NCBI GenBank assembly: GCA_963741305.1
Contig: CAVUHL010000002.1
Span: 56,607 to 120,606, forward strand
Direction of reading: 5' to 3'
Length of the DNA stretch: 64,000 nt
DNA from: an uncultured Holophagales bacterium
Lineage (GTDB): Bacteria; Acidobacteriota; Thermoanaerobaculia; Multivoradales; UBA5704
The notes under the pieces were generated by a model. That model was given only the letters and a program-made list of their open reading frames with translations. It did not search any database and had not been told where the DNA came from. Of this stretch, positions 36,591-63,189 are shown piece after piece (the stretch's first letter is position 1; the number at the start of each line of letters is the position of its first letter). The position numbers and the translations under genes were made by a program.

Positions 36591-36625
36591 TTAGGCGTTA
36601 GGGCGCGTCACCTGCCGGACCGCTC

Positions 36626-36982: not shown

Positions 36983-37003
36983 GTAACTGAACGCCGGCAG
37001 AAT

Positions 37004-39001
37004 GTCTCAATCCCCCGAAGGGTCCTGACTGCTTTGCGACTCAGCAAACAGAACGAGACGCTTCTCACCGAGAATCAGATGTCTCAATCCCCCGAAGGGT
37101 CCTGACTGCTTTGCGACGTCCGAATGACCGGCGCAAACACCGGTTCGGCTGGTATGTCTCAATCCCCCGAAGGGTCCTGACTGCTTTGCGGCTGAAGAGA
37201 AACAGAGTGTCTCTGCTGCTCGCAATCGTGTCTCAATCCCCCGAAGGGTCCTGACTGCTTTGCGACAGCACGAGACCCAGGAGGCATGGCGAGCCGGAGC
37301 GAAACGTCTCAATCCCCCGAAGGGTCCTGACAGCTTTGCGACCTCTTCCTAAAGAGGTTTGAGGCGGCGTCAAAACGGTTGTCTCAATCCCCCGAAGGGT
37401 CCTGACTGCTTTGCGACGCAGACAATCCACTCGGTCATACCTGGCATATACCGAGGTCTCAATCCCCCGAAGGGTCCTGACTGCTTTGCGACGGCAAGAC
37501 GACCTGATGTCCGCCGCCGCGGCTCCCGGTCTCAATCCCCCGAAGGGTCCTGACTGCTTTGCGACGAGGAAAACCATGAATAGTATTGGCGGTAAAATCG
37601 ATATGTCTCAATCCCCCGAAGGGTCCTGACTGCTTTGCGACGTTATTCCTTCCGGCGCGCAAACTACTCCGGACCTTCCAAGTCTCAATCCCCCGAAGGG
37701 TCCTGACTGCTTTGCGACCGGGATCGCCACTTCGCTCATCTATGACTGCCCCAAGATGTCTCAATCCCCCGAAGGGTCCTGACTGCTTTGCGACCAAACT
37801 CTTTAAGGCACGTTCCCACGGAGTTCCTCGAGTCTCAATCCCCCGAAGGGTCCTGACTGCTTTGCGACCTTCCAAAAGGAGCAGCGCTACGAGGAGAAGC
37901 GGGAAGCTGTCTCAATCCCCCGAAGGGTCCTGACTGCTTTGCGACCCAGGAGCCCGCGCCCGGTTGGGGGAGGCCGTTGAGGTCTCAATCCCCCGAAGGG
38001 TCCTGACTGCTTTGCGACGCGAGAGGCCCTTCCGGCCTGAGAGGGCCAGCCGCTTCGTCTCAATCCCCCGAAGGGTCCTGACTGCTTTGCGACAAATAAC
38101 AACGGCTTCCCTGAGAGTAGTATGGTGGGAATTGTCTCAATCCCCCGAAGGGTCCTGACTGCTTTGCGACGGCGGCCGTACAGGCCGCCCTTCTATACAA
38201 CGAGGTCGTGTCTCAATCCCCCGAAGGGTCCTGACTGCTTTGCGACGAGAAGAGAATGAATTCCAGGCAGCCGCTTATGAAGGTCTCAATCCCCCGAAGG
38301 GTCCTGACTGCTTTGCGACGCCGAGAAAGGCATGGTTTGACGGGTTGGAAGATGATGTCTCAATCCCCCGAAGGGTCCTGACTGCTTTGCGACCCGTCTC
38401 GGTTCTTTGTCTACAATAATCTCAATAAATAAGGTCTCAATCCCCCGAAGGGTCCTGACTGCTTTGCGACCTACACCATCCCAAGGACGGGTAGGCGGGT
38501 AGGATGAATGTCTCAATCCCCCGAAGGGTCCTGACTGCTTTGCGACGGCGAGCGGCTCGTCTCCAAAGCGAAGGCAACATTCCAGGGATGTCTCAATCCC
38601 CCGAAGGGTCCTGACTGCTTTGCGACCAACTCGGAGCGCCTACCCCAAGGGCCTTACACCAGAGATGTCTCAATCCCCCGAAGGGTCCTGACTGCTTTGC
38701 GACATCGACGGCGAGGCCGTAATGGCCCAGGGCCTCGGCCGTCTCAATCCCCCGAAGGGTCCTGACTGCTTTGCGACAAGAGTCCGCCCAGGTGATTGCC
38801 AACGAAGCGTTCAATAGTCTCAATCCCCCGAAGGGTCCTGACTGCTTTGCGACGGGGAGCTTCAGCTCCCCGGAGAGGGGCCTGAGATAGTGTCTCAATC
38901 CCCCGAAGGGTCCTGACTGCTTTGCGACCAGCCAGCTCGGCCAGGAAGGCGCGGCTCTCCGCAGGTCTCAATCCCCCGAAGGGTCCTGACTGCTTTGCGA
39001 C
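37004..39001 (-). CRISPR. CRISPR array 1: 27 x 37-nt repeats, 26 spacers (36-43 nt)
   Basis: Plus-strand repeat GTCTCAATCCCCCGAAGGGTCCTGACTGCTTTGCGAC; first copy at 37004, last at 38965-39001. Variant repeats sit at 37156 (..GCGGC) and 37306 (..CTGACAGC..). The minus-strand form ends in ATTGAGAC (type I/III-style 8-nt handle). The conserved leader lies on the high-coordinate side. Confidence 0.97.
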
Positions 39002-39245
39002 TCCTGCCCCTCCAACCCCCTGAAAAGAAAGCACTTAAGACCGCCAATCCGCTAACCTCCCTCCACCTGACTCCCACGACTGCGTTCCGAGGTTTGACCG
39101 CTGAGGCATCTGGAACACCTATCTGCCTCATTCTGTTCATCTTAATCCACTTTCCTCCGCTTCCGCTAACCTCCCCCCATTTTTTGCCTCTTGGGAGGTT
39201 AGCGGCGTCGCCGATGTAGGTGAAGTAAACTAGTTGTCAAGGAAC
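39002..39245 (-). promoter_or_regulatory. CRISPR leader 1 (copy of a triplicated ~240-bp leader module)
   Basis: Alignable with 49871-50110 and 62942-63185. Shared blocks: CCGCTAACCTC (39049-39059 and 39163-39173), its inverted copy (39195-39205) forming a 12-bp hairpin, CGACTGCGTTCCG, and a TTGACA on the minus strand at 39235-39240. Confidence 0.75.
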
Positions 39246-39423
39246 CCGAGGACTGCGGAAAATGACGAGCTCACGCCCGGTGGCTTCACTTCCTTTAACT
39301 TCCTCACTATTACTGACAGAATTTGCTCCTATCCTTCCGCACCCAGTCTTGACGTTTGATTATGCGGCAGACCACCCGCATTAGGGAAGACACCATCCGC
39401 GGCAGTTTGGTCAGGGCCGGCCG

Positions 39424-40408: not shown

Positions 40409-40411
40409 TGC

Positions 40412-43168
40412 TCAGACCTCGATCACGAACTCCCAACCCTCCCCCTCACCTCTCCGGACCCGCCGAAGAACTCCGAGCGAAAGCTGCAAGGTCTCGCATT
40501 TCTCGTTGTCAAAGAGAGTTGCCAGCTCGGATTGGAGCCGTTCGAGGGCCGCTTCGATGCCTCGCCGGTGGCGCTTGAGCTCCGCGATCTTGCCGACCTT
40601 CTCCTCCGCCGCTCGCCGTTGAGTGTCCGCCTCGGAGGCGGCTTCATCCCGGCTTGCCGCCGGGCGCGCGGGTGACGCGCGAAACACCGGCACTTCGGAG
40701 ACTCGCAGGGCGTAGAGTACCGGCGTCGGATACGCCCGGCCTCTGAGATCGAACTGGCACTTGCAGGTGCCCACCGCCGCCGCTTCCGGATGAAGCTCGC
40801 GGAGCTTCGGGCAGGAGATTGGCCACGGTGGCAAGCGCTCGATCTGCCGGCCCGTGACCTCGGCCCGGTAGTTGTAAGTGTGCGAGATAATGGCGTGCAA
40901 GGCGCTTCGACCTTCCTCCCCCAGATGTCCCAGTGCGCAAAGGAGCGACCATCGTTCGCGATGATTGAGATAGGAGGTCTGACGCGACTTCTTCGCAAGG
41001 TAGCCGAGGACATGGCACCCCTCGAGCACCTTCTGTGCCCGCGGACCGATCGAGTCAGCCGCCTTCTGCTGCGCCGATTCGGTCCCTGGTCCCGGTGCGG
41101 CGGCACAGATCGTGGCGGCCGAGACCCGCGGCAGCGACCTGATGGTCTCCACAGGATCTGAAAGCTCCTGGCCCAGCTCGTCGAGCAACGCACAGCGCCG
41201 GCCCGTCCGCGAATGGACTCCCAGCGGCAGCTTGACCAGAGGTCCGATCATGTCGGGCCGAAGCCGGTCCCGATTGGGAAACTCTTCGATTCGGACTCCT
41301 TCGGGCAGCGGACCGATCGCCTGCACGACATCCAGCAGCCAACGCCGGAGTTGATGGCACGGCACCGGCTCCTCCAAGCGCAGCCAGAGGTGATAGCCCT
41401 TGTGGCCGCTGAGCTCGAGGAGCGTCGAGCCGCCGCGCCGCGAGATCTCGCCCCGAAGCTTGAGAGCCGCCGCCAGCGCACGCCCAAGGAGAGAGCCCAC
41501 TTCCGTAGGGCGCTCATCGATCACTCGTTTCTCCAGGTCTACGTCCAGGACGCCCAATAGAGCGGTGTCTCCAGTGCGAACCAGGGGCAGCGCCAAGGTC
41601 TTCTCTCCCCGCAGATGCGCCCTCCAGTCTTTCTCGTCCATGGGCCGATGGACTGGCACGAAAGCGCGATGGCCCGAACGGTCCACCGTCTCCACAGCGT
41701 GGACACCCTCTCGGCCTTGAAACCAGTCCTGCAACAGCCGAACATCCGACTCCGAGATCGTCTCGCCGCCTGCGGCCGAAGCGGGCTCCGGCTCGGCGAC
41801 ATACCCCGGACGCACTGCGGCCAAGCGGCTGGCGAGATCGTACCTGCCGAGCTCCGCCACCGCTTCGCTCAAGGCTACGAGCCGCTCGGTCTGCGAGCCT
41901 ACGAGCCGCCGCGCCACTGCTCCCAACTCTTCGGGCCCCACTCTCAGCAGGCGCGACCAGCCCTCCGTCTCCGCCTGATGGCTCCGCGAGCCGCCACAGA
42001 CCGCCGCCAACTCGAGCCAGCTTTGCTCCTCACACCCGCAGGCGCTCCAGGCCTCCGCCAGCGCGAATCCAAGCGTGGAAGCAACAGGACTCGAAATTTT
42101 CCACCGTGCGTCCGCCAGACGCTGAGCTACCTCTCGGGAAGCCGTCTCATCTCCGGAGCGTAACAAGGCGAGAATTCCAACCGGTGAACCCATCCAGCAC
42201 TCCGGGTGCCGGCCGAAGTAGTTCGTCCAACCTCGATACAGGGCATCGATCTCCGCGCCCTCCGGCTCCGCCGAGCCAGCGATCTCCTCCAGCCGAAACC
42301 TGAGAGCCTCCACGGCTTTCACAGCAGGCCCCCGCCCTGTCGGCCCGAAGTGATAGCCCAGGAACACGAATCCGTCTTCGGCCCGGCAAATACGGGTCTT
42401 CTCTGCGTTCAAGGTCAAACCGAGGGGCGAGAGGAGCGCAACGATTTGCTCGTGCGCCGCCCGCACCTCGTCCTCGCGAGCGGCGAGAACCAGGAGGTCG
42501 TCACAATAGCGGACATACCTCTCGTGCTCCTTCTCGATGCTGGCGTCCAGCTCCCTGAGATACAGGTTTCCGAGGAGGGGAGAGAGCGGCGATCCCTGGG
42601 CAATGCCGGTGATCATTTCGCTCACTTGATCGTGATCGAAGATGCGGCACCGCAGCACGCGATCCAAGAAGGTAAGCCCTTCCGGGTCAGTGAAGGGCTT
42701 CAGCTGGCGCCGGAGCACCTCCGGCTGAATCGTGTCGAAAAAGCTCTTGACGTCCGCCCGCAACACCCAGGCTGCGCCCTGCTCCACCCAGCGGCCCACG
42801 TCATCCGCCGCCGCCCGCGCCGACGAACCCTTGCGGAACGCTCGGCAGGCGGCCGAGAGAGTGGGCTCCACCCTGGGCGACAAAAGGTCCGTGATCGCCC
42901 TCAGCACCACCCGGTCGCGCACCGCAGGCACCACCAACGCCCGCTCCGAAGCAGCCAGGAAGGCCGGCCGAATCCGCAACACCGGAAGGGACCGATAGCT
43001 CCCGGAGCCGATCTCCTGCGTGAGCTGCTCCAACTCGCCCTCGAGCCGGGAACCGAAAGCTTCCACCGATACCCGATCGATCCCTGCCACTCCCCGCTTG
43101 GCTGCAACGCTCTCCCAGGCACGGCGTAACGTAGTGAGCGCAACGAGATCTTGCAGGAATCCCATCAC
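40412..43168 (-). CDS. reverse transcriptase fused to archaeo-eukaryotic primase-polymerase (RT-PrimPol), CRISPR adaptation-associated
   Basis: Uninterrupted 918-aa ORF between cas2 and cas1. RT blocks: GIDRVS, VPAVRDRVVLRA, FRKGSS, LRADVKSFFDTI, QGSPLSPLLGNLYL, YCDD (42497-42508), LNAEKT, FLGYHF. AEP motifs: LDVDLE (DxD at 41537-41545), SGHKGYHLWL (41381-41410), VKLPLGVHSRTG. These are followed by a PriCT-like helical/Cys-His segment and a coiled-coil tail. Confidence 0.85.
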   Translation of the reverse strand: MMGFLQDLVALTTLRRAWESVAAKRGVAGIDRVSVEAFGSRLEGELEQLTQEIGSGSYRSLPVLRIRPAFLAASERALVVPAVRDRVVLRAITDLLSPRVEPTLSAACRAFRKGSSARAAADDVGRWVEQGAAWVLRADVKSFFDTIQPEVLRRQLKPFTDPEGLTFLDRVLRCRIFDHDQVSEMITGIAQGSPLSPLLGNLYLRELDASIEKEHERYVRYCDDLLVLAAREDEVRAAHEQIVALLSPLGLTLNAEKTRICRAEDGFVFLGYHFGPTGRGPAVKAVEALRFRLEEIAGSAEPEGAEIDALYRGWTNYFGRHPECWMGSPVGILALLRSGDETASREVAQRLADARWKISSPVASTLGFALAEAWSACGCEEQSWLELAAVCGGSRSHQAETEGWSRLLRVGPEELGAVARRLVGSQTERLVALSEAVAELGRYDLASRLAAVRPGYVAEPEPASAAGGETISESDVRLLQDWFQGREGVHAVETVDRSGHRAFVPVHRPMDEKDWRAHLRGEKTLALPLVRTGDTALLGVLDVDLEKRVIDERPTEVGSLLGRALAAALKLRGEISRRGGSTLLELSGHKGYHLWLRLEEPVPCHQLRRWLLDVVQAIGPLPEGVRIEEFPNRDRLRPDMIGPLVKLPLGVHSRTGRRCALLDELGQELSDPVETIRSLPRVSAATICAAAPGPGTESAQQKAADSIGPRAQKVLEGCHVLGYLAKKSRQTSYLNHRERWSLLCALGHLGEEGRSALHAIISHTYNYRAEVTGRQIERLPPWPISCPKLRELHPEAAAVGTCKCQFDLRGRAYPTPVLYALRVSEVPVFRASPARPAASRDEAASEADTQRRAAEEKVGKIAELKRHRRGIEAALERLQSELATLFDNEKCETLQLSLGVLRRVRRGEGEGWEFVIEV

Positions 43169-43177
43169 CGATCCTCC

Positions 43178-43453
43178 TCACAAAATGCGAACGGGTTCCT
43201 GATCAGAGAGCATGCTCCGCCCATAGACATCGACCCGGACCGCGCAGGAGGCGCACAGGTAGTACACCCGGAGGCTGTCGGTCTCCGAGTCGATATGCCG
43301 GAGGGCCCGCTGGATCGACTTCTCCAAGACCTCGGGCGGCAGGTGCCCCTCGAAAACGCTCCGTTGGACGCGGGTGAGCACCATCTCCAGAAGATCGGCG
43401 ACCTTCTGCCGGCCTCGATCGCTGGAGATGTCGTAGGTCACCAACACTTTCAT
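43178..43453 (-). CDS. cas2: CRISPR-associated endoribonuclease Cas2
   Basis: The internal ATG 43453 of ORF 43178..43513 gives MKVLVTYDISSDRGRQKVADLLEMVLTRVQRSVFEGHL...DSLRVYYLC, the Cas2 ferredoxin-fold signature. Confidence 0.9.
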   Translation of the reverse strand: MKVLVTYDISSDRGRQKVADLLEMVLTRVQRSVFEGHLPPEVLEKSIQRALRHIDSETDSLRVYYLCASCAVRVDVYGRSMLSDQEPVRIL

Positions 43454-43615
43454 GGCTCGCCTGTCTCCTCCGGAGTCCTGTGTTTGCCGAAAAGACGCCG
43501 TTCTTCCGGACACACGACAAGCTTACACGCATACCTGGGTCATTTCAAGACGGTATCTGCAGGAGCGGTAGCCTTCGAGAAGGCAGGCTCCTCTTGGCCG
43601 GCGTGCAGCCAAGAG

Positions 43616-46600
43616 GTCTCAATCCCCCGAAGGGGCATGTGCCTATTGATGAATGAGCCAACGACTTGCCTCAATCCCCCGAAGGGGCGCGACCTTGCTC
43701 TGACCAACACGTAAGTTGACTTAAGCCCGGTCTCAATCCCCCGAAGAGTCCTGACTGCTTTGCGACCCGCCGGCACGACTGCAGCTGCCCGTACTTCAAC
43801 GTGTCTCAATCCCCCGAAGGGGAATGAGATGTCCGGATTGCATACATGTCTCAATCCCCCGAAGGGTCCTGCCAGCTTTGCGAGAAGCGCCCAGGCCAGA
43901 ACCATACGGATGGAGCTGCAGGAAAGTCTCAATCCCCCGAAGGGTCCTGCCAGCTTTGCGAGAAGGACTGCGGTAGCGGCTGGCATTAAGCCGCAATCGT
44001 CTCAATCCCCCGAAGGGTCCTGCCAGCTTTGCGAGTGTACGTTGGCGGCACCCGCTTACGCAGCGAAGTAGGAATGTCTCAATCCCCCGAAGGGCTGCCA
44101 GCTTTGCGAGGCGAGTGACTGACCTTGAGGGACAACGGCGGGGCTACCAGTCTCAATCCCCCGAAGGGTCCTGCCAGCTTTGCGAGGATACGACTCCTTG
44201 TGACAAGCACAGGATCCCTGGAAGGTCTCAATCCCCCGAAGGGTCCTGCCAGCTTTGCGAGTACCTCATGCAACACGTGCCCTATCGAGTATTGGGATCG
44301 TGTCTCAATCCCCCGAAGGGTCCTGCCAGCTTTGCGAGGGTTACAAGCGGCCGGACGGGAGGTGCGACATCATGTCGTCTCAATCCCCCGAAGGGTCCTG
44401 CCAGCTTTGCGAGTCAAAAAAGTGGAGTCTGCTGGCAAGATTTGATCAGGATGTCTCAATCCCCCGAAGGGTCCTGCCAGCTTTGCGAGGGCGCTATTCG
44501 GACGACCGAACCGGTCGTCGTAGTCGCGGTCTCAATCCCCCGAAGGGTCCTGCCAGCTTTGCGAGAATATCATCGGCACGGGTCAGCCCGTGGCCGATGT
44601 ATGTATGTCTCAATCCCCCGAAGGGTCCTGCCAGCTTTGCGAGGGCGCTATTCGGACGACCGAACCGGTCGTCGTAGTCGCGGTCTCAATCCCCCGAAGG
44701 GTCCTGCCAGCTTTGCGAGAATATCATCGGCACGGGTCAGCCCGTGGCCGATGTATGTATGTCTCAATCCCCCGAAGGGTCCTGCCAGCTTTGCGAGGGG
44801 CTGGCGGCTTGTGGGTGAAGCTCCGGTCATGTCTAAGTCTCAATCCCCCGAAGGGTCCTGCCAGCTTTGCGAGTTGCGTTCCTCCGGGGACGCAATAACG
44901 TCTTCCCGACAATGTCTCAATCCCCCGAAGGGTCCTGCCAGCTTTGCGAGGAAACCCAAGCCTCAACCGACCACCCCAGTTCCGATTGTCTCAATCCCCC
45001 GAAGGGTCCTGCCAGCTTTGCGAGGAAAGCCATACGATCTACCCCCATACTCTGGAAAGGTCATGTCTCAATCCCCCGAAGGGTCCTGCCAGCTTTGCGA
45101 GTCTCCAGAGGATGGTCTACACACCGGCACGTCACAACTGAGGTCTCAATCCCCCGAAGGGTCCTGCCAGCTTTGCGAGCAAGAGGGACATCCCGGCTTT
45201 CCTGGCCTTCGCCGGAGATGTCTCAATCCCCCGAAGGGTCCTGCCAGCTTTGCGAGCTCACAAGGGAATGCTGCCCCGAGCAGTAACACAAAACGGTCTC
45301 AATCCCCCGAAGGGTCCTGCCAGCTTTGCGAGAGGGATCGTCCCTTCGCGCTTTGGCCGAAAACGAAGAAGTCTCAATCCCCCGAAGGGTCCTGCCAGCT
45401 TTGCGAGTATTGTCCGTGGCGGCGAGGAGAAAGGGGGAGCGGTAATGTCTCAATCCCCCGAAGGGTCCTGCCAGCTTTGCGAGTCTCGCGATTCGCAGTA
45501 GTGGTGGTTGTGAATTTGTTCAGTCTCAATCCCCCGAAGGGTCCTGCCAGCTTTGCGAGTGCCAGATGGAGAGGTGTATAGATTTTACCATCTGCCAAGT
45601 CTCAATCCCCCGAAGGGTCCTGCCAGCTTTGCGAGGCCGCCATCGCCGAAAAACTGACAGGCATGTTGCAGATGTCTCAATCCCCCGAAGGGTCCTGCCA
45701 GCTTTGCGAGGTCAGCAAGGCGATCGACCTGGTGGTCGAGAAAAAAAGTCTCAATCCCCCGAAGGGTCCTGCCAGCTTTGCGAGCTCTCGTAGAGTTCGG
45801 GGAAGTGCCAGGCTGCCCCAATCGTCTCAATCCCCCGAAGGGTCCTGCCAGCTTTGCGAGTCCTCCGGGAGGGGGCTTTGGCGAGGCACCGGTCAATGAG
45901 GTCTCAATCCCCCGAAGGGTCCTGCCAGCTTTGCGAGAACCAGCTGCTGGAAGGCGCGAATGCCATCCTCGAGACGAAGTCTCAATCCCCCGAAGGGTCC
46001 TGCCAGCTTTGCGAGGTACGTCCAAACGCCTTGGCCATCTTGGTCGAGGAGATGTCTCAATCCCCCGAAGGGTCCTGCCAGCTTTGCGAGTTAATTTCTA
46101 GGGCCGCCGGTAGGCGGCCTCCTTGCCCGGGTCTCAATCCCCCGAAGGGTCCTGCCAGCTTTGCGAGCGCCGCAGCCCGTGAAGGTCGAGGGGTTCGTCA
46201 AGATGTCTCAATCCCCCGAAGGGTCCTGCCAGCTTTGCGAGGCTGCGCAGGGGTCGAGAGATTCCGAACTATCTATCCAGTGTCTCAATCCCCCGAAGGG
46301 TCCTGCCAGCTTTGCGAGGCGGCTGAATTAGAGGGAAAAACCATCACAGAATTCATGTCTCAATTCCCCGAAGGGTCCTGCCAGCTTTGCGAGGTTCATG
46401 GCCTTGGTGAGCATGCTCATGATGTTTACAATGTCTCAATCCCCCGAAGGGTCCTGCCAGCTTTGCGAGCTGAACAGCGGCACGGCCCTCGCCAACAACT
46501 CCCTCAGTCTCAATCCCCCGAAGGGTCCTGCCAGCTTTGCGAGGGGAGAGATACCATGGCACACGTGGGCTTGGAACACGATGTCTCAATCCCCCGAAGG

Positions 46601-49600
46601 GTCCTGCCAGCTTTGCGAGGACTCCGGCGACCGCGCTGGGCAAGCTGGACAAGAAGATGTCTCAATCCCCCGAAGGGTCCTGCCAGCTTTGCGAGCACGA
46701 CCGTCAGCGACCCCACGAAAAACGTTTCCCTTGAGTAGTCTCAATCCCCCGAAGGGTCCTGCCAGCTTTGCGAGGAGGCAGCAAGAGAATTCCTCGAACG
46801 CCTCAGCAACGAAGTCTCAATCCCCCGAAGGGTCCTGCCAGCTTTGCGAGGCCCATGTCGTAGCCCATCACTTGGGGATTCTCCATGTCTCAATCCCCCG
46901 AAGGGTCCTGCCAGCTTTGCGAGCCCTCCGCTGCCTTGACTGAGCAGCATGCCCTCCCGATGTCTCAATCCCCCGAAGGGTCCTGCCAGCTTTGCGAGAC
47001 CGGTGGAGGCGAAGAAGCCCAAGCCTCAACCCACAATGTCTCAATCCCCCGAAGGGTCCTGCCAGCTTTGCGAGTCCAACCCGAAGGTGCGGAAGATCAC
47101 TATCCATCTAACTGTCTCAATCCCCCGAAGGGTCCTGCCAGCTTTGCGAGAAGTGAAGATCAAGAAGGGGATAATGACCAGCGTCTGCATGTCTCAATCC
47201 CCCGAAGGGTCCTGCCAGCTTTGCGAGGAAGAAGGAGGACCGTTTTGGATAACGAAACCATAATCGTCTCAATCCCCCGAAGGGTCCTGCCAGCTTTGCG
47301 AGCGGGATAAGGGCCTCAAGTGGTTCAACGCGTATTATGTCTCAATCCCCCGAAGGGTCCTGCCAGCTTTGCGAGTGACGATGACATCACGGACGGCCTC
47401 TACCAGCTACTGGAGGTCTCAATCCCCCGAAGGGTCCTGCCAGCTTTGCGAGAAAAAAGATGCCAAGCTGCAAGAAACCTACAACTCGAATGTCTCAATC
47501 CCCCGAAGGGTCCTGCCAGCTTTGCGAGTATACCCTCACCGTCTCCAGCTCCTGCACCTAGTCTCGAATGTCTCAATCCCCCGAAGGGTCCTGCCAGCTT
47601 TGCGAGCATGTTCAGCGCACTTCCCTTGGCAAGGTCCACCTTCGAGTCTCAATCCCCCGAAGGGTCCTGCCAGCTTTGCGAGGACAGAAGCTCTGCCTCC
47701 ATATCCTCGTCTTCCTCAGTGTCTCAATCCCCCGAAGGGTCCTGCCAGCTTTGCGAGTAAAAATAGTGTCCCGGTAGGGGGGTAGATCTGCAAAGTCTCA
47801 ATCCCCCGAAGGGTCCTGCCAGCTTTGCGAGTCAGTGTTGGCTGTCATCCTACTGGCGTGTATACCAATGTCTCAATCCCCCGAAGGGTCCTGCCAGCTT
47901 TGCGAGTGGAGGATCCTTATGGGCAGAAGAGGCTTTAGTAGGAATTGTCTCAATCCCCCGAAGGGTCCTGCCAGCTTTGCGAGGCTGGACGACCTGTAGC
48001 CATTCACGAAGGAACATAAAGTCTCAATCCCCCGAAGGGTCCTGCCAGCTTTGCGAGGAAGAGATCGATCTTACGATGTCAGAACTTAATAATGTCTCAA
48101 TCCCCCGAAGGGTCCTGCCAGCTTTGCGAGACACAGGAGATGACTCTCTCGACGAAACGATCCTTCCAGTCAATGTCTCAATCCCCCGAAGGGTCCTGCC
48201 AGCTTTGCGAGCTGCCCCGTCCCACGCTCCAGGAACTGCAAGAAGCCATGTCTCAATCCCCCGAAGGGTCCTGCCAGCTTTGCGAGCCAGAGCAGACAGT
48301 CCTCGCACAGTGAGCCTTTCCTTTATGTCTCAATCCCCCGAAGGGTCCTGCCAGCTTTGCGAGATCGGCGGACCCCCGCACTCGGGGAAGTCCGTCCTTA
48401 TGTCTCAATCCCCCGAAGGGTCCTGCCAGCTTTGCGAGGCGGCGCAGGCTGACGGCTCTGAGCTTGCGTATATCAAGTCTCAATCCCCCGAAGGGTCCTG
48501 CCAGCTTTGCGAGTCGACGGCCCGGCGCGTTCGTACGAGACCGACGGCATGTCTCAATCCCCCGAAGGGTCCTGCCAGCTTTGCGAGGAAGATGCGGTAG
48601 GCCTCCTTCCGCTGACCTTCGAGGATGTCTCAATCCCCCGAAGGGTCCTGCCAGCTTTGCGAGGTCCTCTTGACCAGCGTGTCCCCAAGCCCCGGATTCA
48701 GTCTCAATCCCCCGAAGGGTCCTGCCAGCTTTGCGAGGACGTACAGCGAGGCCGTGCTCAAGGTGCTCGCCACGATGTCTCAATCCCCCGAAGGGTCCTG
48801 CCAGCTTTGCGAGGAAGCAGGAGCAGCTTCACCAGCCGACCTTCGCGAAGGTCTCAATCCCCCGAAGGGTCCTGCCAGCTTTGCGAGTTCATCCTCCGCG
48901 AGGGGGAGAAAGGGCAAACTATGTGTCTCAATCCCCCGAAGGGTCCTGCCAGCTTTGCGAGAAGACAGGCCCGCTATCCATGCAGGAAGATGGAGTCGTC
49001 TCAATCCCCCGAAGGGTCCTGCCAGCTTTGCGAGGACTATCCAGACCCGAGATCTACGCTACGACACTCTCAATGTCTCAATCCCCCGAAGGGTCCTGCC
49101 AGCTTTGCGAGGGCTTTTGGGGTCAGTGGGTTCGGCAGTCGTTGGTAAAGTGTCTCAATCCCCCGAAGGGTCCTGCCAGCTTTGCGAGATCAATACGGAA
49201 ACGAAGCTCCAGCTCGGTTCCTTCAAATGTCTCAATCCCCCGAAGGGTCCTGCCAGCTTTGCGAGCTTTCGGGCTCTGGTCGCCGCGCGGGCGGCGCTCG
49301 TGTCTCAATCCCCCGAAGGGTCCTGCCAGCTTTGCGAGCTGCTTGGCAACAACAGCTTCCTGCCACTCGCCAATCGGTCTCAATCCCCCGAAGGGTCCTG
49401 ACAGCTTTGCGAGGCCGAATCCGTCAGATAAACCACTTCTCGAGGTAGAAGGTCTCAATCCCCCGAAGGGTCCTGCCAGCTTTGCGAGAGTACAGGGAGT
49501 TTGATGTTCTGGCAGCCGTAGTGATGTCTCAATCCCCCGAAGGGTCCTGACTGCTTTGCGAGCTACGACGATGTTCAGGAGATGATCGCGCCTTAACGAA

Positions 49601-49870
49601 AGTCTCAATCCCCCGAAGGGTCCTGCCAGCTTTGCGAGGTTACCGCAATGTCCACAGCTTCACCTTCGCGGTAACCAATGTCTCAATCCCCCGAAGGGTC
49701 CTGACTGCTTTGCGAGCCTAGTTGGCTGAACCAATCCTTTTGAGGGATACTTGCTGTCTCAATCCCCCGAAGGGTCCTGACTGCTTTGCGAGCAGCAGAA
49801 CAATATGCATATCATAGCGATCCGAAGCTCAATGTCTCAATCCCCCGAAGGGTCCTGACTGCTTTGCACC
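43616..49870 (-). CRISPR. CRISPR array 2: 80 full 37-nt repeats plus 4 degenerate trailer units, 79 spacers (36-44 nt)
   Basis: Plus-strand repeat GTCTCAATCCCCCGAAGGGTCCTGCCAGCTTTGCGAG; full copies run from 43848 to 49834-49870. Degenerate or truncated units lie at 43616, 43668, 43730 (array-1-type) and 43803. Variants occur at 44076 (2-nt deletion) and 46357 (C to T). Hybrid repeats lie at the leader end. Confidence 0.97.
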
Positions 49871-50110
49871 TGCCTCTCTAACCACCTGAAAGGAAAGACT
49901 TTAAGGTGGCCATTCCGCTAACCTCGCTTCGCTGGGCTCCCGCGACTGCGTTCCGCCGCTTGGCCACCGGATGCCGCAAGTCTCTATCTGACTTCATTCT
50001 ACTCATCTTAACCCAATTTCTTCGCTTTCCGCTAACCTCCCCCCGTTTTGGGCCCTTTCGGAGGTTAGCGCCACTCCCCGGTCTGGGAGAAGTAAATCAG
50101 TTGTCAAAGA
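49871..50110 (-). promoter_or_regulatory. CRISPR leader 2
   Basis: Same module as leaders 1 and 3: CCGCTAACCTC at 49915-49925 and 50029-50039, the inverted copy near 50060-50070, and a minus-strand TTGACA at 50102-50107. It overlaps the last codons of the cas6 frame. Confidence 0.75.
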
Positions 50111-51130
50111 ACCCTTGGACTCCAAAGGATCGAAGAGCTTTCCGCCCCACCGGTTTCACTTCGTGGAACTTCCCACCCCTCCTTCCGGCAGACGTGACCT
50201 CGATTCTGCCGCACCCCGCGGTGGGGTTCTTGCCCAGGTGCAGGATCTCTCCCGCCCGGAGGATCGGGAAGAACCTGGCCGCTTCGGGTCCGTAGACCAA
50301 GCGGCCGATTTGCCGCCGAGCAGCATCTCGGCGCCGGAGCGGGCGGAGTAGTCCTTCACCTCGATCCATTCGGTTTCGTTCACGAGGAGCGGCACCCGGG
50401 CGGCCTCGCCTCGACGGTGGGGCGGATGGCGGGATGGAGGATCTCGCTGGAGCTTTCACCGTAGAGGCCCTCGGAAGCGGTCAAGGATGCGGGCAATCAG
50501 CAGCGCAAAGGGTACCGGCGCGTTCCGCGGTAGGAGCCGACCTCCTTGGAGGAGCCGCGCCGGACTCAGCAGCCGGATCTCCACCGGCTGGGGAGCGAGA
50601 AAGGGCTCCATCCCTAGCCCGAGCCAATCCGGCTCCAGAGTTGGGCTCAGTTGCGTCAAATCGCCGCCACAGAGCCTCTCGCGGCTGCGGTCGGGCCGGA
50701 TCCGGTCGACGGTCTCGAGGATCCACTCGGTCCGCTCGCTCCCGAGCCCCAAACGGAACGCCTGCGCAAGGCCCGAGAGGACCCAGGGATAGAGGCGCCA
50801 GCCCGCTCCCAGGAGGGTGACCTCCAGGATGGCTCTTTCTTCTTCGTTCCCCGAGGTGTACAGCGCGAACGGGGGCCGCGCGCTCCGGCTGGCGGCGAAG
50901 AGCACGCCATACGGGCAGCACTCTGCGAGGTGGCAGAGGTCCTGAGGCCTCGGCCGCGGCTCGCTCCCCGCCTCGGCCCCCTGGCACCGCGGCTCTCCGA
51001 ACGGGCAGAACGTGTCGATGAACGCCTTCCCCAGGACGCGCCGGACCAGGGCGGCCGGGAGAACCGGCTCGGTGTTCCCGCGCCCGGCGGCCGGGCGCAC
51101 CTGAAGGCGAAGGCGAAGGTAGGGGTGCAT
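50097..51130 (-). CDS. cas6: Cas6-type pre-crRNA endoribonuclease (Cys-rich N-terminal variant), frame broken about twice
   Basis: ORF 50456..51130 (MHPYLRLRLQV...FCPFGEPRC...CHLAECCPYGVLFAA...) continues through pieces of ORFs 50156..50395 and 50097..50459. It ends with the glycine-rich loop LHLGKNPTAGCGRIEV typical of Cas6. It lies directly upstream of leader 2 and array 2. Confidence 0.6.
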
Positions 51131-51145
51131 TGGCGTTCTCGCCGT

Positions 51146-52890
51146 TCAGCGCTTAGGCGGCCGCTCGTAGCGTTCCAGGGCTGGCAGGGGCTTCCCAGGT
51201 TCGAGGGGCGGCAACGCCTTCTTCTTGCTCTTGTCGTTCGTCATGAACCACCGGAAGTTTTCGCCCTCGGCCTTCTTTCCCAGGAGAACCGGATAGCACA
51301 CCTCCGTATTCAATTCTTCCACTTTCGCCGGATCTCCCAGCAGCTCCAGCGCAGCACGTACCTCCTCAGGAATGGACTCCTGGACCTCCGCCAACAATGC
51401 ATCGCAGCCTGGGAGGGCCTGTGCTTCCCCAGGTAGCGCCGTGACAGCTTCGGCTTCATGCCGGTAGCGTCGTGCGAGCTGCGAAGATAGATTGCGCCAT
51501 GCCTCGGCGTCGATCCGCGATTCCATTCTGTGGAACTTCGGACCGAAGAGCCGATCCGACTGATAGCCCGTTCGCCGGTTCGTGAAGCAGAGGGCGAGGA
51601 GATCGATGCGAATCTTCCCGAAGCCCAAGGGTTTGGCCATACCCAGCTTGTGGCGGAACTTCTCGGTGGGCCTCAAGGCATAGCGGAGGTAACCCAACTC
51701 CTCACGGGTGAGGTTCTCGAAATCGACATGAAAAAGGAAGCGGGTGTTCTTCTTGAGCGGCCGCACCCGGGCCTTTTGCTTCATCGTCTTGCTTTCCAAC
51801 TGCCGGCTTTCGTAGTTACGAGCCTCGACGTCTTCCTCCCGGTGGTGAAGGTAGAATTTCCGGCCCTGGGGTGCGTGCTTTCGGAAGTCGAGGCTCTGCT
51901 TGCTGAGATATCTCTGGTTGCCGAAATAGAGAGCCGGGCTCGGCGGCTTGGGACTGGCGAGAATCTTGAGCAAAACCGGCGCGTCGTACCAGCCTCCCTC
52001 CGGAGGACCACTCTCCGCCATGGCATGGGCGAAACGGAGCCGGCCGGCCAGGGCTCGCTCTTTTCCTCCTTGCTCCACGAATCCGAAAAGCTGTTCCGCC
52101 AGAGTTAGCTGCGTCCGACCTGCATGCAACGGCACAAGGTCGGGTGAGACCCGTTCAAAGGCGCGGTGCACACTGCCGCCGATGGGTACTTTGGTTCCCG
52201 TAAGGTCCCGGCGCTGGAAAAGTGCGTCCGCCAGCACCCGAAGCGTCGAGCAGGAGGCCGCCTCGACGATGGAGGAGATGAGTCCTCGGAGGGTGCTTCC
52301 CGGAATCATGGGGGTTCGCCGGTAGGGATCGTCCGGCGCGTCCGGGTCTGGCGATCCGAAGGGATAAATCAGCCGTTCCCTTTCGGGATCCGGCTCCTCC
52401 TGTGAGTCTTCCTTCGCGTGCGGCTGCTCGGCGCCCACCACCACGGGACCTTCGGTCTCCAGCCGGCAGACGATGCGGCCGGAGTAGCGCCGGGGACCGG
52501 CTTCTCCGTCGCCGTCGAATCGATCATGGAGGGTGCCGTTCAGGACCTTGTTGGCTCCGCCAGATGCGAGGGAGGCTCAAGGGGCACGAAATGATAGGGA
52601 TTGAGGAAACTCCGCGCCGGCACCGCCCGAGCCGGGGCCGGGCGTGCGGACCCGATATAGGGCTTGAAGCTGAGGACACGGGGCGAGTCCGCCTTCGGGT
52701 CGGGCTCGAACTCGATCCGCCGGCCGGCGGCAAGCTCCGCGTCCGGATAGCCTGCATCCCGCGCCAGAGAGATATGGAAAAAGTGGAAGTCCGGCCAGTC
52801 CTGCTCAGGGCGAGTGCGAATCTTACGCACATCACGATGCTGAGGCTTGCCGCCCGGAAACTCCACGATGGTGCCCTCTTGCCAAGCCAT
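51146..52890 (-). CDS. cas7: Cas7-family RAMP with large insertion and N-terminal cold-shock-like extension (TIGR03986-like), frame broken once
   Basis: ORF 52540..52890 (MAWQEGTIVEF...FLNPYHFVPL) continues in ORF 51146..52444 (MIPGSTLRGLISSIVEAAS; LAGRLRFAHA; KFYLHH; LGMAKPLGFGKIRI glycine loop). Confidence 0.65.
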
Positions 52891-53404
52891 TACGAGCCCC
52901 CTTCCACGGCGCGGTAGCGGACGTAGCGGACAGCGCCTGCCTGGACGTATTCCCTATAATCAGGAACGCGTATCGGGGAGAGCCGGGATCGAGCCCCTCG
53001 TAGCGCAACGGGTCGGGGATACGCTCCTCATACCAGGTTGCGGTGCCTTCCAAGGCTTCGCCCCAGAGACGGGAGCGGCGGTCGCGTTGCACCCAGCCGG
53101 GCCCGCCGATGTGTTGCGCCGATCCCTCGGGAGCCGTGGGGATCACGGCCAGCTCGACGCCGCGGTCTCCCAACCAATGCAGGTCGCGCTCGTCGTTGAA
53201 GACCCTCAGCTCCTGAAGCGTGGGGCGACGCGCGATCTCCTCCCAACGAGCCCGCGGGGCGCGGAGAAGGCACGCTTCGGTGGCCGTCGTGTAGAACCCC
53301 CAGGTCTCCTCGGACGGCAGCTTTGCTAGGAAGTCTTCGAGGTTCGCCAGCGGATGGATGGTGATTTCTTCGCTCGGTTGGATGAGCTTTCCCTCACTAC
53401 TCAT
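52890..53404 (-). CDS. small type III-D accessory subunit, Csx19-like by position and size, frame broken once
   Basis: ORF 52832..53404 (MSSEGKLIQPSEE...) reaches, after a frame switch near 52960, a TAA that overlaps the next gene's ATG (TAATG at 52888-52892). The assignment comes from synteny (between Cas7x2 and Cas7-insertion) and its ~170-aa size, not from a recognised motif. Confidence 0.35.
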
Positions 53405-54974
53405 GGGCCGATCCCTCTCTGGGCTCGCCGGTCTGCGGGTGGGCGCTCAGCTCGCGATGAAGCTCCTGCACCCAGGTGGCGAAGCACTCTTGCAACTCCG
53501 GGCCGGCCAGGTCCCCGGCCGCGGCAGGGCTTTCCACGGGCCGCGGCGGACTCCAGCTCGCGCTTCCCGGACGCTCCTGGAGCTCAGGCACGCCCGCGAG
53601 GGCCGCGGGCGGCTGAAGCCAGAAGCGGTCCGTGGCAGTGATCCTGCGCGGAATATTCGTTGAGCCCTTTCGCCGTGCCGAAGCCCACCGGAATATCGGC
53701 GAGCAGGAGATCCCGGAGCACCAGGGTCATCAGCCCCAGCCCCCACTCCTCCAGGCGATAGCGGCCGATCTCCAGGTGGATCTCGCCGGCCAGGGTGACG
53801 GCGGGGCTCAGCTCGGCATTGAACTTGGCGCCGGCTGACGAGCCGCCGGTGAAACGGTCCACGGCCACGAATTCCTGCCGCTAAGGGGGGCCCTCGGCGG
53901 GTCCGAGTGGAAGGAAATCCGTGATCCTGACCGGCGAGGCGAGCCTGCCGCTGCCGAAGACGCGGCAGGCCTTGCAGTGGACGGCGAGCTCGCCGTCAAA
54001 ATCCATCTTCTCATCCAACTTCTCGTGACAGGCCGCTCCACGGCGGTTGAGGTAGCAGGCGGCCGGCTCGCCGCCCAAGGTGCGCAGGATCTGCTCGGCC
54101 CGGCTGCGCAGGGCGCCCCGCAAAGCGCTGCCCGGCAGCACGGGCCTACCGTCCGCCTGACGTGCGTAGGTATGGTCGAAGCCGGACCCCAGGGCCTCCG
54201 CCGGGTCGTTGACCAGGAAGCCCCAGGGGAAGTGAAGCTCAATCCGAAGCCGGAGCTGTGCCCAGGCGTCTCCTTCAGCCGGCAGGTCCCACTCCGCATT
54301 CCAGCCGGAGGGAATGAGGGGGTCACCGCGGCGCCGGCCGTGGGGTCGTCGGAGAGGAGGTTTTCGACGAGATCCGCCGGCCGGGTCATGTCCAACTCGG
54401 CGCGGTCCAGACGCACCAGCTCGGCCCGACCCAGGCCGGAGGAGGTCTTGCCACCCAGGAAGAGCCAACCGGCGGCCAGACGCTGCAACACCGCCTCCAG
54501 GGCACGCAGCTCATCCTCCTGCGGATCGTCGATCCGCAGCTCGAAGGGAAACTCGACGCCGCCCTCCACCACCTCGACGTCGTACTTCCGCCGGTCCGCC
54601 GCCGTGCGCGTGCGCCGGTCGATGCCCACGCGGTCGCGCACTCGGGTCGACAATGGACCGCTGGACGCCCCTCCCAAGACGTGGAGCCGCGAGGCGGCGA
54701 GGTGGGAGTCTTCGCCGTCCTGGCGTCGCCGGCCGGCCGCGCGGGGTCCCAGCAGGCGGCAGACGACACACCGGCATTCCGGAGCACGGCGGCACCCTCC
54801 GGTGAGCCGCTCCAGGTCGGCCCGCAGGACGCCGGCCAGTGACGAGCCGGAGAGCGCCACCTGGCCGTCCGTCTCGCGGAAGAGGGGTTGGTCCACGGCT
54901 CCGAGACGGCGGCCGTCGCCGGTGTGGAAGCCGTAGGGGAAGCGCAGGGCGCCCGTGTAGGTAGTCCTTTTCAT
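53397..54974 (-). CDS. cas7: fusion of two Cas7 (Csm3/Cmr4-like) RAMP domains (Cas7x2), frame broken 2-3 times
   Basis: Starts at ATG 54974 (MKRTTYTGALRFPYGFHTGDG). Domain 1 has LSGSSLAGVLRADL, a CxC..VC Zn-like motif and LGGKTSSGLGRAEL. Domain 2 (ORF 53881..54468 frame) has PVLPGSALRGALRSRAEQIL and a Cys cluster, then ORF 53584..53868 has VAVDRFTGGS...PVGFGTAKG. The likely stop is TAG 53397. Confidence 0.65.
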
Positions 54975-55489
54975 GGCTGTGCCTGCTTTCGCGCCTCGTC
55001 CATCCACCGCCGCGCCAGCGCGCGGAGGAGGACGCGTGCGATGTCCGTCAAGAACCGCTTTTCGGCTTCGAGATCCCGTGGCAACGCGCCCCGGAGGGCA
55101 TGCCTCACCTCCGTCACCGCTGCCCTGACTGCCGCTCCAGATCCTCAAGCCGTAGAGGCCCTGCTCCCCCTCCTCCACCTCACCCAGGCGGTCCAGGGCC
55201 TCGGCGATAGGCTCCCAAAGGCCCTGCTCTCCTTCGCGGTCCTTGCGGTTCTGCTTTTCGCGATCCTGGTCTTGCGGTTCTGCCGGATCCGGCCAGCCAT
55301 GCCCCGCAGCTCGGCCGCCATGGCGTCGCGGTCTTTCATCGTGGCGATGCGGAGGAGCAGGGCGGCGGCCGGGCGGAGGTTCTCCTCCCGCGGCCGGAAG
55401 GAGTCCCAGGGCGGAGGCATGTCCACGCCGGACTGCTGTTCCAGCACGGCCACGAGCCGGCGTTCGAGCACGTCGCGCGCGGCGATCAT
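54971..55489 (-). CDS. cas11: Cas11-like small helical subunit, two compensating frame switches
   Basis: ATG 55489 overlaps the upstream stop (ATGA) and the TGA at 54971-54973 overlaps the downstream ATG (ATGA). Helical, charged sequence: MIAARDVLERRLVAVLEQQ...EPIAEALDRLGEVEEGEQGLYGL...RFLTDIARVLLRALARRWMDEARKQAQP. The middle part reads sensibly only in a second frame. Confidence 0.45.
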
Positions 55490-57366: not shown

Positions 57367-58884
57367 TCCTTCCGCAGCTCCGAGAGCACGAGAGCATCCG
57401 CCAGGGCCAGGCGGTGATAGGTCCGGGTCTTGCCTTCGGCATGCACGGTTTCCGATCGCAGCAGGTCCGGTAGCGGCGGAACCTCCGGATCGAGCGCGAA
57501 CGGCCTCTTTTCCTGGTCCTGGCGCGCCAGCCAGGCTGAGAGCTCCGCCACCACCCTCTCGGGCACCTGCCAGACGGCGTGCAACCGCGTATCGGGCCCG
57601 TCGTCCCGCGGCGAGAGGATCTCCCGCAGCCGGCCCCGTTGGCTCGCCGTCACGTCCGCCAGCCGGCTGGCCAGGCCAAGGAGGTCTTCAAGCTCCTCCG
57701 GCGTGTACGGACCCGCCGCGCCGTAGGACCAGGCCGTGCCGGAATCCTGCTCCGGCCGCTCGATCGTGGCGCGCTCCTGCTCCAGGGATTGGACCTGCGT
57801 AGCCGTGACCCGGTGAAAATCGAGCGCCGCCTGCACGCCATCCTGCCGGCAGCGGGCCTTCGCCCGGCCGAGCAGGGAGTCGGCCAGGGTGTGGGCCTGG
57901 CGGAAGGGAAACGAAGGTTTGGAGAAAAGGAGCCCCGCGGCCATGCCCGTCGTGCGGCCAGGCTCCGTAGGCTTCTCCACCTCGAACTTCCTCAGCAACT
58001 CCATGGCAAAACGGATCCCGTGCCGCGCCGGCAAGGCCACGACCAGGTCATCGCCGCCACAAATGAGCACTTGGAGACTGGGGCTGGAGTCGCCAGGGAA
58101 CGCCGCCTCCACGGCATCGTTCAGGGCCTGCGCAGGGTCGAATCCACCTCGGTGGAGAGCTTCTCCACGTCCTCGAGGCTCAAGTCCTCGAACCAGTCGC
58201 CGAGGCCATTGCCGTCCGCCACCACCAAGGCGAGATCGTCCTCGCCCGCAAGATCCTGGAAGTTGGCCGGCAGCTTCGCGCCCCGCAGGCGTTCCGTCAC
58301 CACTGGGAGATCCAGGGGTTCCGGCAACCGTAGACCTCGTGCTTGGGATCGCGGCCCGGCTTGGAAAGCTCCTGCAGCTTGCCGTGCATCCGGCGCTTGC
58401 GGGCGCAGGCCGGGCCAAACCACTGGGGCCGGTCTGTTCCAGGATCGCGAAAGGTTTCGTCCGCCGTTTCCCGGCCGCAGACCTCGCAACGCTTGAGAAA
58501 CGGCATCGAGGCGAGCTGCCGCGCGCCTCCGGATGCCCGTTTCGCCCGCCGGAGGAGCCGCATCAAGTCTTTCTGATCGAGCTCTGCGGACTCCTCCTGC
58601 GTGAGCGAAACCAGGGTGATTCCGTCACCGCCGGTCAGATCCAGAAAGGCGTTGCGGACGCATTCGATCAACTGGGCCGCGCGCGTTTCGTCCGCGAGGC
58701 GGGCAAGGAAGTTCCCACCGCCCGAATAGATCCTCCTGCCGCCGAATTTCCGGATGAGCTCCGGCACCGCCGCGCGGTCAAAGAAGTCGATCAAGGCGCT
58801 CGCGCCGCGCATCTCCAGGAGCCGCGGAGATCCGAAGATGTAATCCTGGATGCTGCGCACGTCGCCGGCCACGTAGGTCGGCAT
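57363..58884 (-). CDS. cas10: small Cas10 (two Palm domains, zinc ribbon, GGDD cyclase motif, no HD domain), frame broken twice
   Basis: ORF 58297..58884 (MPTYVAGDVRSIQDYIFGSPRLLEMRGASALI...YSGGGNF...CEVCG) continues into ORF 58121..58489 (LALVVADGNGLGDWF), then ORF 57363..58418 (ICGGDDLVV, GGDD at 58047-58058). About 507 aa in total. Confidence 0.7.
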
Positions 58885-58918
58885 CTCGCACCTCCTCCCG
58901 AAGTCGCCGCTCGCAGGT

Positions 58919-60646: not shown

Positions 60647-61146
60647 ACCTGCTCCCCTTCGCCCATGCGGATCAATCCAGCATGAGATTGCGGAATTGCG
60701 AGAAATCTTCTCTCTATCCAACCTCCCTGTCAAGAGCAGCGGCACGCGGACGGTCGGACGGGTCGCCCGCATAAGGGTGAAGACACGGGTTCGCGGCAAA
60801 CTGGTAAGAGACAGACCTGCCCACAGTAGGCATCGGAGGGCCCGCCGACGTGCGAATGCGCCGGAGCGTTTGAAGTTCCGGAAGTCGCCTGGTCGCTTCG
60901 GGTCCCGGTGGTGACCGGCAGCACCCCGGAGGTCCCACCTCATTCGCGCAACGGAGCCTCTCTCGAATGTACCGGAAGTACCAGCGTGCCTCTGCCGGGG
61001 GAAGGCCCCGAATGGGGCAAACCCTCCGCCCCGTCTGAGCAAGCTTCTCGGCCCATGGGGGAAGCTCGAAATGCCGCCAGAGCCGGGTCCATAGGCTAGC
61101 CTCCGGGGGCGCCAGCGTGGGCGAGTGAAGTCAGGAGCGCATCCGG

Positions 61147-63185: not shown

Positions 63186-63189
63186 CCTC

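Follow-up and report, generated by a model that had tools for sequence, protein, structure and literature searches.

A window of 64,000 nucleotides (contig CAVUHL010000002.1 of an uncultured Holophagales bacterium, positions 56,607 to 120,606 of the forward strand) carries a type III-D CRISPR locus in which one gene joins a reverse transcriptase (RT) to a CRISPR-associated primase-polymerase (CAPP). The identity and context of this fusion as a CART-CAPP adaptation enzyme, CART standing for CRISPR-associated RT, are near certain, and we consider it probable that it is the adaptation polymerase of the locus with both catalytic centres working. Activity at both sites is suggested by conservation, because D139, D223 and D224 of the RT and D542, D544, H593 and E628 of the primase-polymerase (Prim-Pol) are invariant and the Prim-Pol is as conserved as the RT.

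The architecture as such is already known: it has a name, annotation databases cover it (NCBIfam, Pfam and PADLOC hold models for RT-CAPP-type domains) and it is partly characterised. The window protein is a further member of the CART-CAPP family. CAPPs, including a 'CAPP-RT' type, were defined by Zabrady 2021 (PMC8211822), and two fusions, CaCART-CAPP and GlCART-CAPP, were purified together with their domains by Zabrady 2023 (PMC10415136). The original prediction for this DNA, which knew of no mechanistic description of such a fusion, was mistaken on that point. For the two purified enzymes, the RT domain by itself suffices for de novo priming and for polymerisation on both RNA and DNA. The isolated Prim-Pol domain was inactive, and RT-PP constructs with a dead RT were inactive too. 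Cas1-Cas2 integration is supplied by RT priming, and the authors hypothesise that an inactive Prim-Pol is common in such fusions (PMC10415136). Those CAPPs that stand alone are DNA-dependent: they prime, extend and carry out strand displacement on integration intermediates. In MpCAPP the part outside the C-terminal domain (CTD) binds Cas1, the CTD self-associates, and the DxD motif is essential (D177A/D179A; PMC8211822).

Gene structure and domain architecture

The fusion gene lies on the minus strand at 40412..43168 as one uninterrupted open reading frame (ORF) of 918 codons plus stop, with GTG as start codon and ATG as codon 2. Between the cas2 stop TGA (43178-43180) and the start codon of the fusion lie 9 nt, with a ribosome-binding site, GGAGGA, among them. 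At the other end, 3 nt separate the fusion stop TGA (40412-40414) from the GTG of cas1 at 40408, and the operon order on the minus strand is cas2, fusion, cas1. A single 918-codon ORF between cas2 and cas1 with gaps of 9 and 3 nt had been predicted with exact coordinates, and the position is confirmed by the junctions and by Cas1 and Cas2 profile matches. This operonic linkage to cas1 and cas2, a defining trait of class A CAPPs, is kept in relatives.

An AlphaFold (AF2) model of the protein, built with 38 homologues (mean pLDDT 85, pTM 0.40), shows five parts: RT fingers and palm followed by thumb-like helices, an all-alpha stretch (329-450), the Prim-Pol (473-690), a Cys-rich CTD (709-830) and a tail (846-917) composed of a helix (846-889) and strands (893-917). 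Their positions in the window, with the evidence for each, are as follows (AEP, archaeo-eukaryotic primase).

42194..43168, minus strand: RT domain (aa 1-325) with fingers, palm and start of the thumb; D139, D223, D224 (YCDD); RVT_1, 6ar1, Foldseek match to 7k9y, invariance
41819..42184, minus strand: all-alpha region (aa 329-450); AF2 helices 329-450, Foldseek against GsI-IIC
41099..41752, minus strand: Prim-Pol (AEP) catalytic domain (aa 473-690); D542/D544, H593, E628, KLPLGVH 646-652; MsCAPP alignment, Foldseek, invariance
40679..41044, minus strand: helical CTD (aa 709-830) with invariant C718, H736, C786, C802, C804; NF040561, AF2, conservation
40415..40633, minus strand: long helix and small beta-sheet (aa 846-918), Mu Gam/Sipho_Gp157-like; Pfam PF22709, AF2

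We regard these domain calls as solid. In profile searches, Pfam RVT_1 covers aa 74-274 (E 1e-27), the 'AEP-TOTE' primase domain aa 476-687 (E 7e-19) and PF22709 'Mu Gam/Sipho_Gp157-like' (Mu_Gam-TOTE) aa 855-917 (E 3e-13). The NCBIfam model NF040561, 'CRISPR-associated primase-polymerase type A1', matches aa 471-882 with 260.5 bits against a curated cutoff of 200, which places the protein in class A (CAPP_A) by sequence, and NCBI gives homologues of the fusion this same name. In PADLOC the protein scores best with the CRISPR 'RT' model (230 bits) and with 'PrimPol, adaptation polymerase' (159 bits). RVT_1, the invariant D139/D223/D224, the PADLOC RT score and the type III-D genes nearby together identify the N-terminal part as a CRISPR-associated RT, and the presence of RT, CAPP Prim-Pol and CTD in a single ORF is the CAPP-RT or CART-CAPP architecture.

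Comparison with solved structures gave the same picture. Residues 3-318 match the GsI-IIC RT (6ar1, E 8e-30) and the RT of Cas6-RT-Cas1 (7kft, E 7e-26), and the RT part of the model matches 7k9y in Foldseek (E 1e-18). The Prim-Pol region aligns residue by residue with MsCAPP (7nqd/7nqf, E 2e-25), pairing DVD with DID, GYHLW with GYHIW, IEEFP with VEIFP and KLPLGVH with KVPLGVH, and its predicted fold superimposes on MsCAPP with TM 0.86-0.89, the root-mean-square deviation (rmsd) being ~2 A. Residues 1-~450 follow the full-length GsI-IIC RT over ~460 columns at ~14 A rmsd. Given this rmsd, aa 329-450 are only tentatively, though probably, the thumb/D-like part of a group-II-type RT. Distant clades largely lack this region and have ~30-40 aa between RT and Prim-Pol. 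The CTD residues C718, H736, C786, C802 and C804 form a PriCT-like, probable zinc site. From the domain name and the self-association published for the MpCAPP CTD, we speculate on DNA-end binding or dimerisation as the role of the Mu-Gam-like tail.

The domain order read from the letters of the DNA, RT, then AEP/Prim-Pol, then a PriCT-like Cys/His CTD with a helical tail, is upheld by Pfam, NCBIfam, structure alignment, AF2 and Foldseek; two of the checks proposed with it, profile searches of the RT and AEP regions and a Foldseek search with a predicted structure, came out in its favour. On re-reading the sequence, all four predicted motif positions proved exact (YCDD 42497-42508, DVD 41537-41545, SGHKGYHLWL 41381-41410 and VKLPLGVHSRTG 41201-41236). 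As for the three AEP motifs among them, DxD and SGHKGYHLWL stand and the third assignment falls: the aspartates D542/D544, G591-Y-H593 and I627-E628 align to the active site of MsCAPP, and the canonical motif III acid, placed by alignment, is E628 in VRIEEFP, which pairs with DVEIFP of MsCAPP. Judged by sequence, the KLPLGVH block is a further family-specific motif and not AEP motif III. The expectation that the D/D/H residues of the 480-720 region would line up with a solved CAPP active site was borne out.

Conservation of the two catalytic centres

Across 38 full-length fusions, down to 32% identity, D139, D223 and D224 of the RT are invariant, as are D542, D544, H593, E628, K646 and H652 of the Prim-Pol and C718, H736, C786, C802 and C804 of the CTD. 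Mean column identity is ~0.7 for RT and Prim-Pol alike. In genome loci the D-D-H-E-K-P-G-H signature is complete in 96 of 106 Prim-Pol domains. A census of 145 representatives, biased toward profile-like sequences, sorted the family as follows.

Both sites intact: 107/145
YxDN in the RT (second Asp to Asn) with an intact Prim-Pol: 11/145
RT intact, Prim-Pol site degenerate: 22/145
Conservative single Prim-Pol change, or RT site not covered: 5/145
Both sites lost: 0/145

Examples of either loss were found in genome loci. Two KSB1 loci (L010:9953-12883 and L011:2262-4778) have YSDN in place of YxDD in the RT together with an intact Prim-Pol. Three RT-fused Prim-Pols are dead at the catalytic positions (L083:4591-7353, NNHQ; L153:4000-7536, STRE; L107:2643-5354, EERQ), and each of these fusions adjoins an intact stand-alone CAPP with cas1. 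Their losses look independent, since mutual identity among the three is only 25-31% and they form no cluster. In our reading, purifying selection maintains the Prim-Pol site wherever no other polymerase can take its place. The window protein has both sites intact and is the sole CAPP of its locus, being the only RT and the only Prim-Pol within the window. The pattern suggests that selection maintains both active sites in most family members, among them the window protein. As sequence evidence, it argues that the Prim-Pol site is needed in the window protein, against the published guess of general inactivity.

On this basis a division of labour can be proposed for the window protein, which we infer from sequence conservation. 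The cas2, fusion and cas1 genes would be translated from one operon. With transcripts or RNA genomes as template, the RT would synthesise the first DNA strand, and the Prim-Pol, aided by the Cys-rich CTD, would prime and fill the complementary strand and/or repair the gapped, duplicated repeat after integration. Double-stranded prespacers would then be passed to the unfused Cas1-Cas2 and inserted at the three leader-proximal array ends. The original prediction had likewise given the first strand to the RT and the second to the Prim-Pol. In the two tested enzymes this was not observed, their Prim-Pol being inactive and their RT doing the priming; for the clade of the window protein it is still plausible because the Prim-Pol catalytic residues are invariant. 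By analogy, the unrelated defence protein DRT7 offers a precedent for a handoff from RT to Prim-Pol in one polypeptide, as in this system the RT product is reported to be passed to the Prim-Pol within one chain (preprint, 10.64898/2026.04.18.719102; PMC12439943).

A different role for the Prim-Pol, which we hold to be unlikely but take seriously, is that of a catalytically silent scaffold: the RT alone would prime and make both strands, and Prim-Pol and CTD would bind nucleic acid or dock Cas1-Cas2. The biochemical results for two fusions with this architecture, whose authors hypothesise that an inactive Prim-Pol is common (PMC10415136), are direct evidence in line with this, as is the binding of Cas1 by the non-CTD part of MpCAPP (PMC8211822). 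In addition, about 15% of the representatives have a degenerate Prim-Pol site and yet keep the four CTD cysteines, so a non-catalytic role can suffice in some lineages. For the clade of the window protein, however, a scaffold has to account for the invariance of D542, D544, H593, E628 and KLPxGxH and for a Prim-Pol as conserved as the RT. It is also hard to square with the distribution of losses, because RT-site and Prim-Pol-site losses never coincide and Prim-Pol sites were lost beside a back-up CAPP in three unrelated loci.

Several points weigh against two working centres. The only two CART-CAPPs tested, from Caloramator and Geobacillus, had an inactive Prim-Pol and an RT that primed and extended (PMC10415136). 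Motif conservation may not predict activity, and the tested enzymes were compared with the window protein by description. The assignment of E628 as motif III residue comes from alignment and invariance, and the census has the sampling bias given above. Single domains of the AF2 model are reliable and their mutual arrangement is not (pTM 0.40). A search for protospacers of 115 spacers in the remainder of the window and in 159 related loci, and for array B also in GenBank phages, gave only chance matches of 14-15 nt and no protospacer for a strand-bias test; an RNA origin of the spacers is a possibility. Finally, the cas1 frameshift and the broken effector genes described below may mean that the system is non-functional in this genome or that the assembly is error-prone. 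We see an even balance for the stronger statement that the window protein falls into the CART-CAPP majority, whose two centres would both be catalytically required and would act in sequence on one substrate, from RNA to first-strand DNA and on to the primed second strand or gap repair. Support for it comes from the mutually exclusive losses of RT and Prim-Pol sites across the family and from the loss of Prim-Pol sites beside a back-up stand-alone CAPP.

The type III-D locus and its frame breaks

The remaining features of the locus, between flanks of ordinary chromosomal metabolism genes, are listed here.

43178..43513, minus strand: cas2 (ORF from GTG 43513; probable start Met at 43453); Pfam CRISPR_Cas2 E 8e-20, TIGR01573
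39424..40408, minus strand: cas1, in two frames with one extra T at ~40264; two ORFs covering Cas_Cas1 profile positions 1-45 and 50-283, spacing, DNA alignment
37004..39001, minus strand: CRISPR array A, 27 repeats of 37 nt, downstream of cas1
39002..39423, minus strand: leader of array A, by 72-73% identity to leaders B and C
43616..49870, minus strand: CRISPR array B, ~82 repeats, with a degenerate trailer end at 43616-44035
49871..50300, minus strand: leader of array B, by identity to the other leaders
50196..61042, minus strand: type III-D-like effector module with RAMPs, Csx19, Csx10-like protein, Cas10 and CARF protein; at least 7 frame breaks
61739..62941, minus strand: CRISPR array C, 13 repeats, with leader at 62942-63400

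All three arrays lie on the strand of the cas genes, with repeats of 37 nt and spacers of 36-42 nt. The regions of ~300-420 nt on the high-coordinate side of arrays A, B and C can be taken as conserved leaders because they are pairwise 72-78% identical. The repeats share a 24-nt core (GTCTCAATCCCCCGAAGGGTCCTG) and differ at the other end (ACTGCTTTGCGAC, CCAGCTTTGCGAG and TCCTAATTGCGGC); one adaptation module apparently serves all three variants. The reverse complement of the array repeat ends in ATTGAGAC, which we take to resemble the 8-nt CRISPR RNA tag of type III systems. Array B contains an exact tandem duplication of two spacer-repeat units at 44451-44799 (154-nt period, 100% identical), its trailer end at 43616-44035 consists of degenerate repeats, and a lone degenerate repeat at 61148-61184 stands just upstream of the CARF gene. 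The effector module upstream of the fusion encodes a TIGR03986 RAMP, Csx19, Csx7-like and Csx10-like RAMPs, a Cas10 palm and the CARF protein.

Three further observations were made at and beyond the locus edge. A tRNA-Glu(TTC) gene lies at the edge of the CRISPR locus (36084-36159), and the strand of the cas genes carries, immediately downstream of array A, a gene with an XRE-type helix-turn-helix (36626-36982). Far from these, at 16402-16695, a lower-GC stretch holds a tandem repeat with nested periods of 21, 42 and 84 nt (TGCAATGCC...-type units).

The contig had been described as rich in frame breaks, and this is borne out by at least seven switches in the type III-D effector genes (50196-58905) in addition to one in cas1. 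The latter, which the original prediction did not mention, is a +1 frameshift caused by an extra T at ~40264, seen in a DNA alignment with four relatives. The spacing there is 13 nt against 12 nt in the relatives, and 40252-40275 reads CAATTCTTCGAG in the window against CAATTC-TCGAG in the relatives; deleting the extra T restores ...VQFSSQALALLLDQGIDVSF... and full-length Cas1. In the effector genes, switches were located by mapping intact ORFs of short-read metagenome-assembled genomes (MAGs) onto the window. They fall in cas10 (~58330 and ~58100), in the RAMP genes (~54300, ~53660, ~52960 and ~52560) and at ~50312. Near 52208-52240, moreover, ~230 aa of the gRAMP-like protein of relatives have no counterpart in the window.

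Damage of this extent, with a frameshifted cas1, at least seven switches in cas10 and RAMP genes and part of the gRAMP-like protein missing, is what would be expected if the CRISPR system were decaying and non-functional, with an open fusion ORF that no longer works with Cas1 or the effector complex. We think such decay improbable. No break affects the fusion ORF, cas2 or a 2.4-kb RAMP gene, the arrays are long (more than 120 repeats in all) with nearly uniform repeats, and the leaders are conserved. Furthermore, in the nearest relative (L005, likewise from a long-read MAG) the breaks are not those of the window, and two of them fall in its own fusion gene. Because these breaks lie at other places, the pattern looks more like assembly indel noise than shared decay, with real decay as the less likely cause.

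Relatives and known systems

About 45 proteins were found as full-length homologues of the fusion, with 49-73% identity. The nearest relative, a Thermoanaerobaculaceae MAG, has a fusion that is 78% identical and a Cas1 that is 86% identical, so that the window DNA probably stems from a Thermoanaerobaculia-like bacterium of the Acidobacteriota. In one-genome-per-species data we found 472 RT-related loci, and full-length fusions occur in Acidobacteriota, Gemmatimonadota, KSB1, Nitrospinae, Myxococcota, Poribacteria, Armatimonadota, Verrucomicrobiota and others. A profile search against 1.84 billion representatives returned more than 150 clusters at 50% identity that match the fusion profile; the top 150 matches all have scores of 496 bits or more, and roughly two in three of them cover the full-length profile without interruption. 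The gene order is cas2-fusion-cas1 in the close clade and fusion-cas1-cas2 in distant clades, and stand-alone CAPPs are followed by cas1-cas2 in most loci. Some relatives (P0045, P0172-P0174, P0187 and P0193) have N-terminal extensions of 120-200 aa before the RT, which in P0045 contain TPR repeats and make it a TPR-RT-PrimPol.

The closest characterised proteins are the CART-CAPPs of Caloramator australicus (CCJ33120) and Geobacillus lituanicus (ASS88148). Like the window protein they combine a group-II-like RT, a class A CAPP Prim-Pol and a CTD, stand beside cas1-cas2 of type III loci and have an intact YxDD in the RT. The numbering of GlCART-CAPP is similar (D214/D215, with RT-PP spanning 1-690). 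CaCART-CAPP has 713 aa against 918 aa in the window protein, whose extra parts are the helical region 329-450 and the Mu-Gam-like tail. Both tested enzymes come from Firmicutes and have an inactive Prim-Pol, whereas the Prim-Pol residues of the window protein are invariant, a comparison made by description of the tested proteins. Neither CCJ33120 nor ASS88148 was among the top 80 loci of two genome scans or in the protein search with the Prim-Pol domain. The RT of the window protein matches the CaCART-CAPP RT structure (8BGJ) with E 5e-14, more weakly than it matches GsI-IIC or Cas6-RT-Cas1. A 2021 review using the Toro clade scheme (PMC8632793) assigns RT sequences 'adjacent or fused to an AEP domain' to RT clade 12, which is described as Firmicutes-restricted and whose published examples are from Firmicutes. 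From the weak 8BGJ match and this restricted clade, the window protein may represent a separate lineage of the CART-CAPP architecture.

On the Prim-Pol side, MpCAPP (Marinitoga piezophila) and MsCAPP (Marinitoga sp. 1137; PDB 7NQD, 7NQE, 7NQF, 7P9J) have a Prim-Pol and a CTD homologous to those of the window protein. These TPR-CAPPs agree with it column for column in DxD, GYHxW, VE.FP and K.PLGVH, and operonic cas1-cas2 linkage is common to both. They differ in having an N-terminal TPR where the window protein has the RT, and they are DNA-dependent only, being poor on RNA templates (PMC8211822).

On the RT side, GsI-IIC (6AR1/7K9Y) is the best match in sequence and fold for aa 1-~450, including the thumb motif RGWxNYF. 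Group II intron maturases differ from the window protein, which has no maturase or endonuclease C-terminus. A mobile group II intron RT/maturase was considered and rejected, as TIGR04416 gives 209 bits against a cutoff of 300, positions 36000-51000 contain no group II intron RNA (no Rfam match), and the 9-nt and 3-nt gaps leave no room for one. The next-closest RTs, 33-39% identical, belong to RT-Cas1 and Cas6-RT-Cas1 proteins (Marinomonas mediterranea; PDB 7KFT), which share the group II intron ancestry. Spacer acquisition from RNA has been demonstrated for RT-Cas1-type fusions, according to work cited in PMC10415136. There the RT is covalently joined to the integrase Cas1, whereas in the window cas1 is a separate gene and the RT is joined to a second polymerase. 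An RT-Cas1 fusion was rejected as the identity of the window protein, the fusion ending at its stop codon 40412-40414 and cas1 starting separately at 40408.

DRT7/UG10 of the PPRT form (10.64898/2026.04.18.719102, PMC12439943) also unites RT and Prim-Pol in one chain. It is not linked to CRISPR, acts in abortive infection or damage tolerance, uses protein-primed synthesis and has the Prim-Pol at the N-terminus, the reverse of the order in the window. The shared domain pair with its handoff, and Pfam names for the AEP and C-terminal domains that are taken from the TOTE conflict system, could point to a stand-alone DRT7/UG10 (PPRT) or 'TOTE conflict system' defence RT-primase that merely lies near CRISPR genes and would cause abortive infection via aberrant DNA. 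We rejected this reading as very improbable: the PADLOC UG10 model (UG10_large) matches only the RT core with 85 bits against 230 for the CRISPR RT and 159 for PrimPol, the domain order is opposite, and the operon-tight linkage to cas2 and cas1 is kept across phyla. That an assembly error or frameshift joined separate RT and Prim-Pol genes, a worry raised by the many frame breaks on the contig, has a negligible chance and was rejected, in agreement with the original prediction that the long frame is no artefact, because four relatives align in a single frame over the full length, and single-frame full-length homologues and matching clusters come from many independent assemblies, short-read MAGs and complete chromosomes among them.

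Two studied enzymes with an inactive Prim-Pol led to the idea that the RT has replaced the Prim-Pol. The locus described here and its relatives add a testable refinement in the form of the hypothesis that most CART-CAPPs, unlike these two, use both polymerase sites. If true, the suggestion in the literature that such fusions generally carry the Prim-Pol as a dead relic would be overturned, and no type III adaptation module of this kind could do with fewer than one dedicated polymerase activity, two being the usual need. The Acidobacteriota-type CART-CAPP would then be a better model for how RNA becomes a double-stranded, integrable prespacer, and it would provide a natural single-chain enzyme for primer-free conversion of RNA to double-stranded DNA, useful in transcriptional-recording tools.

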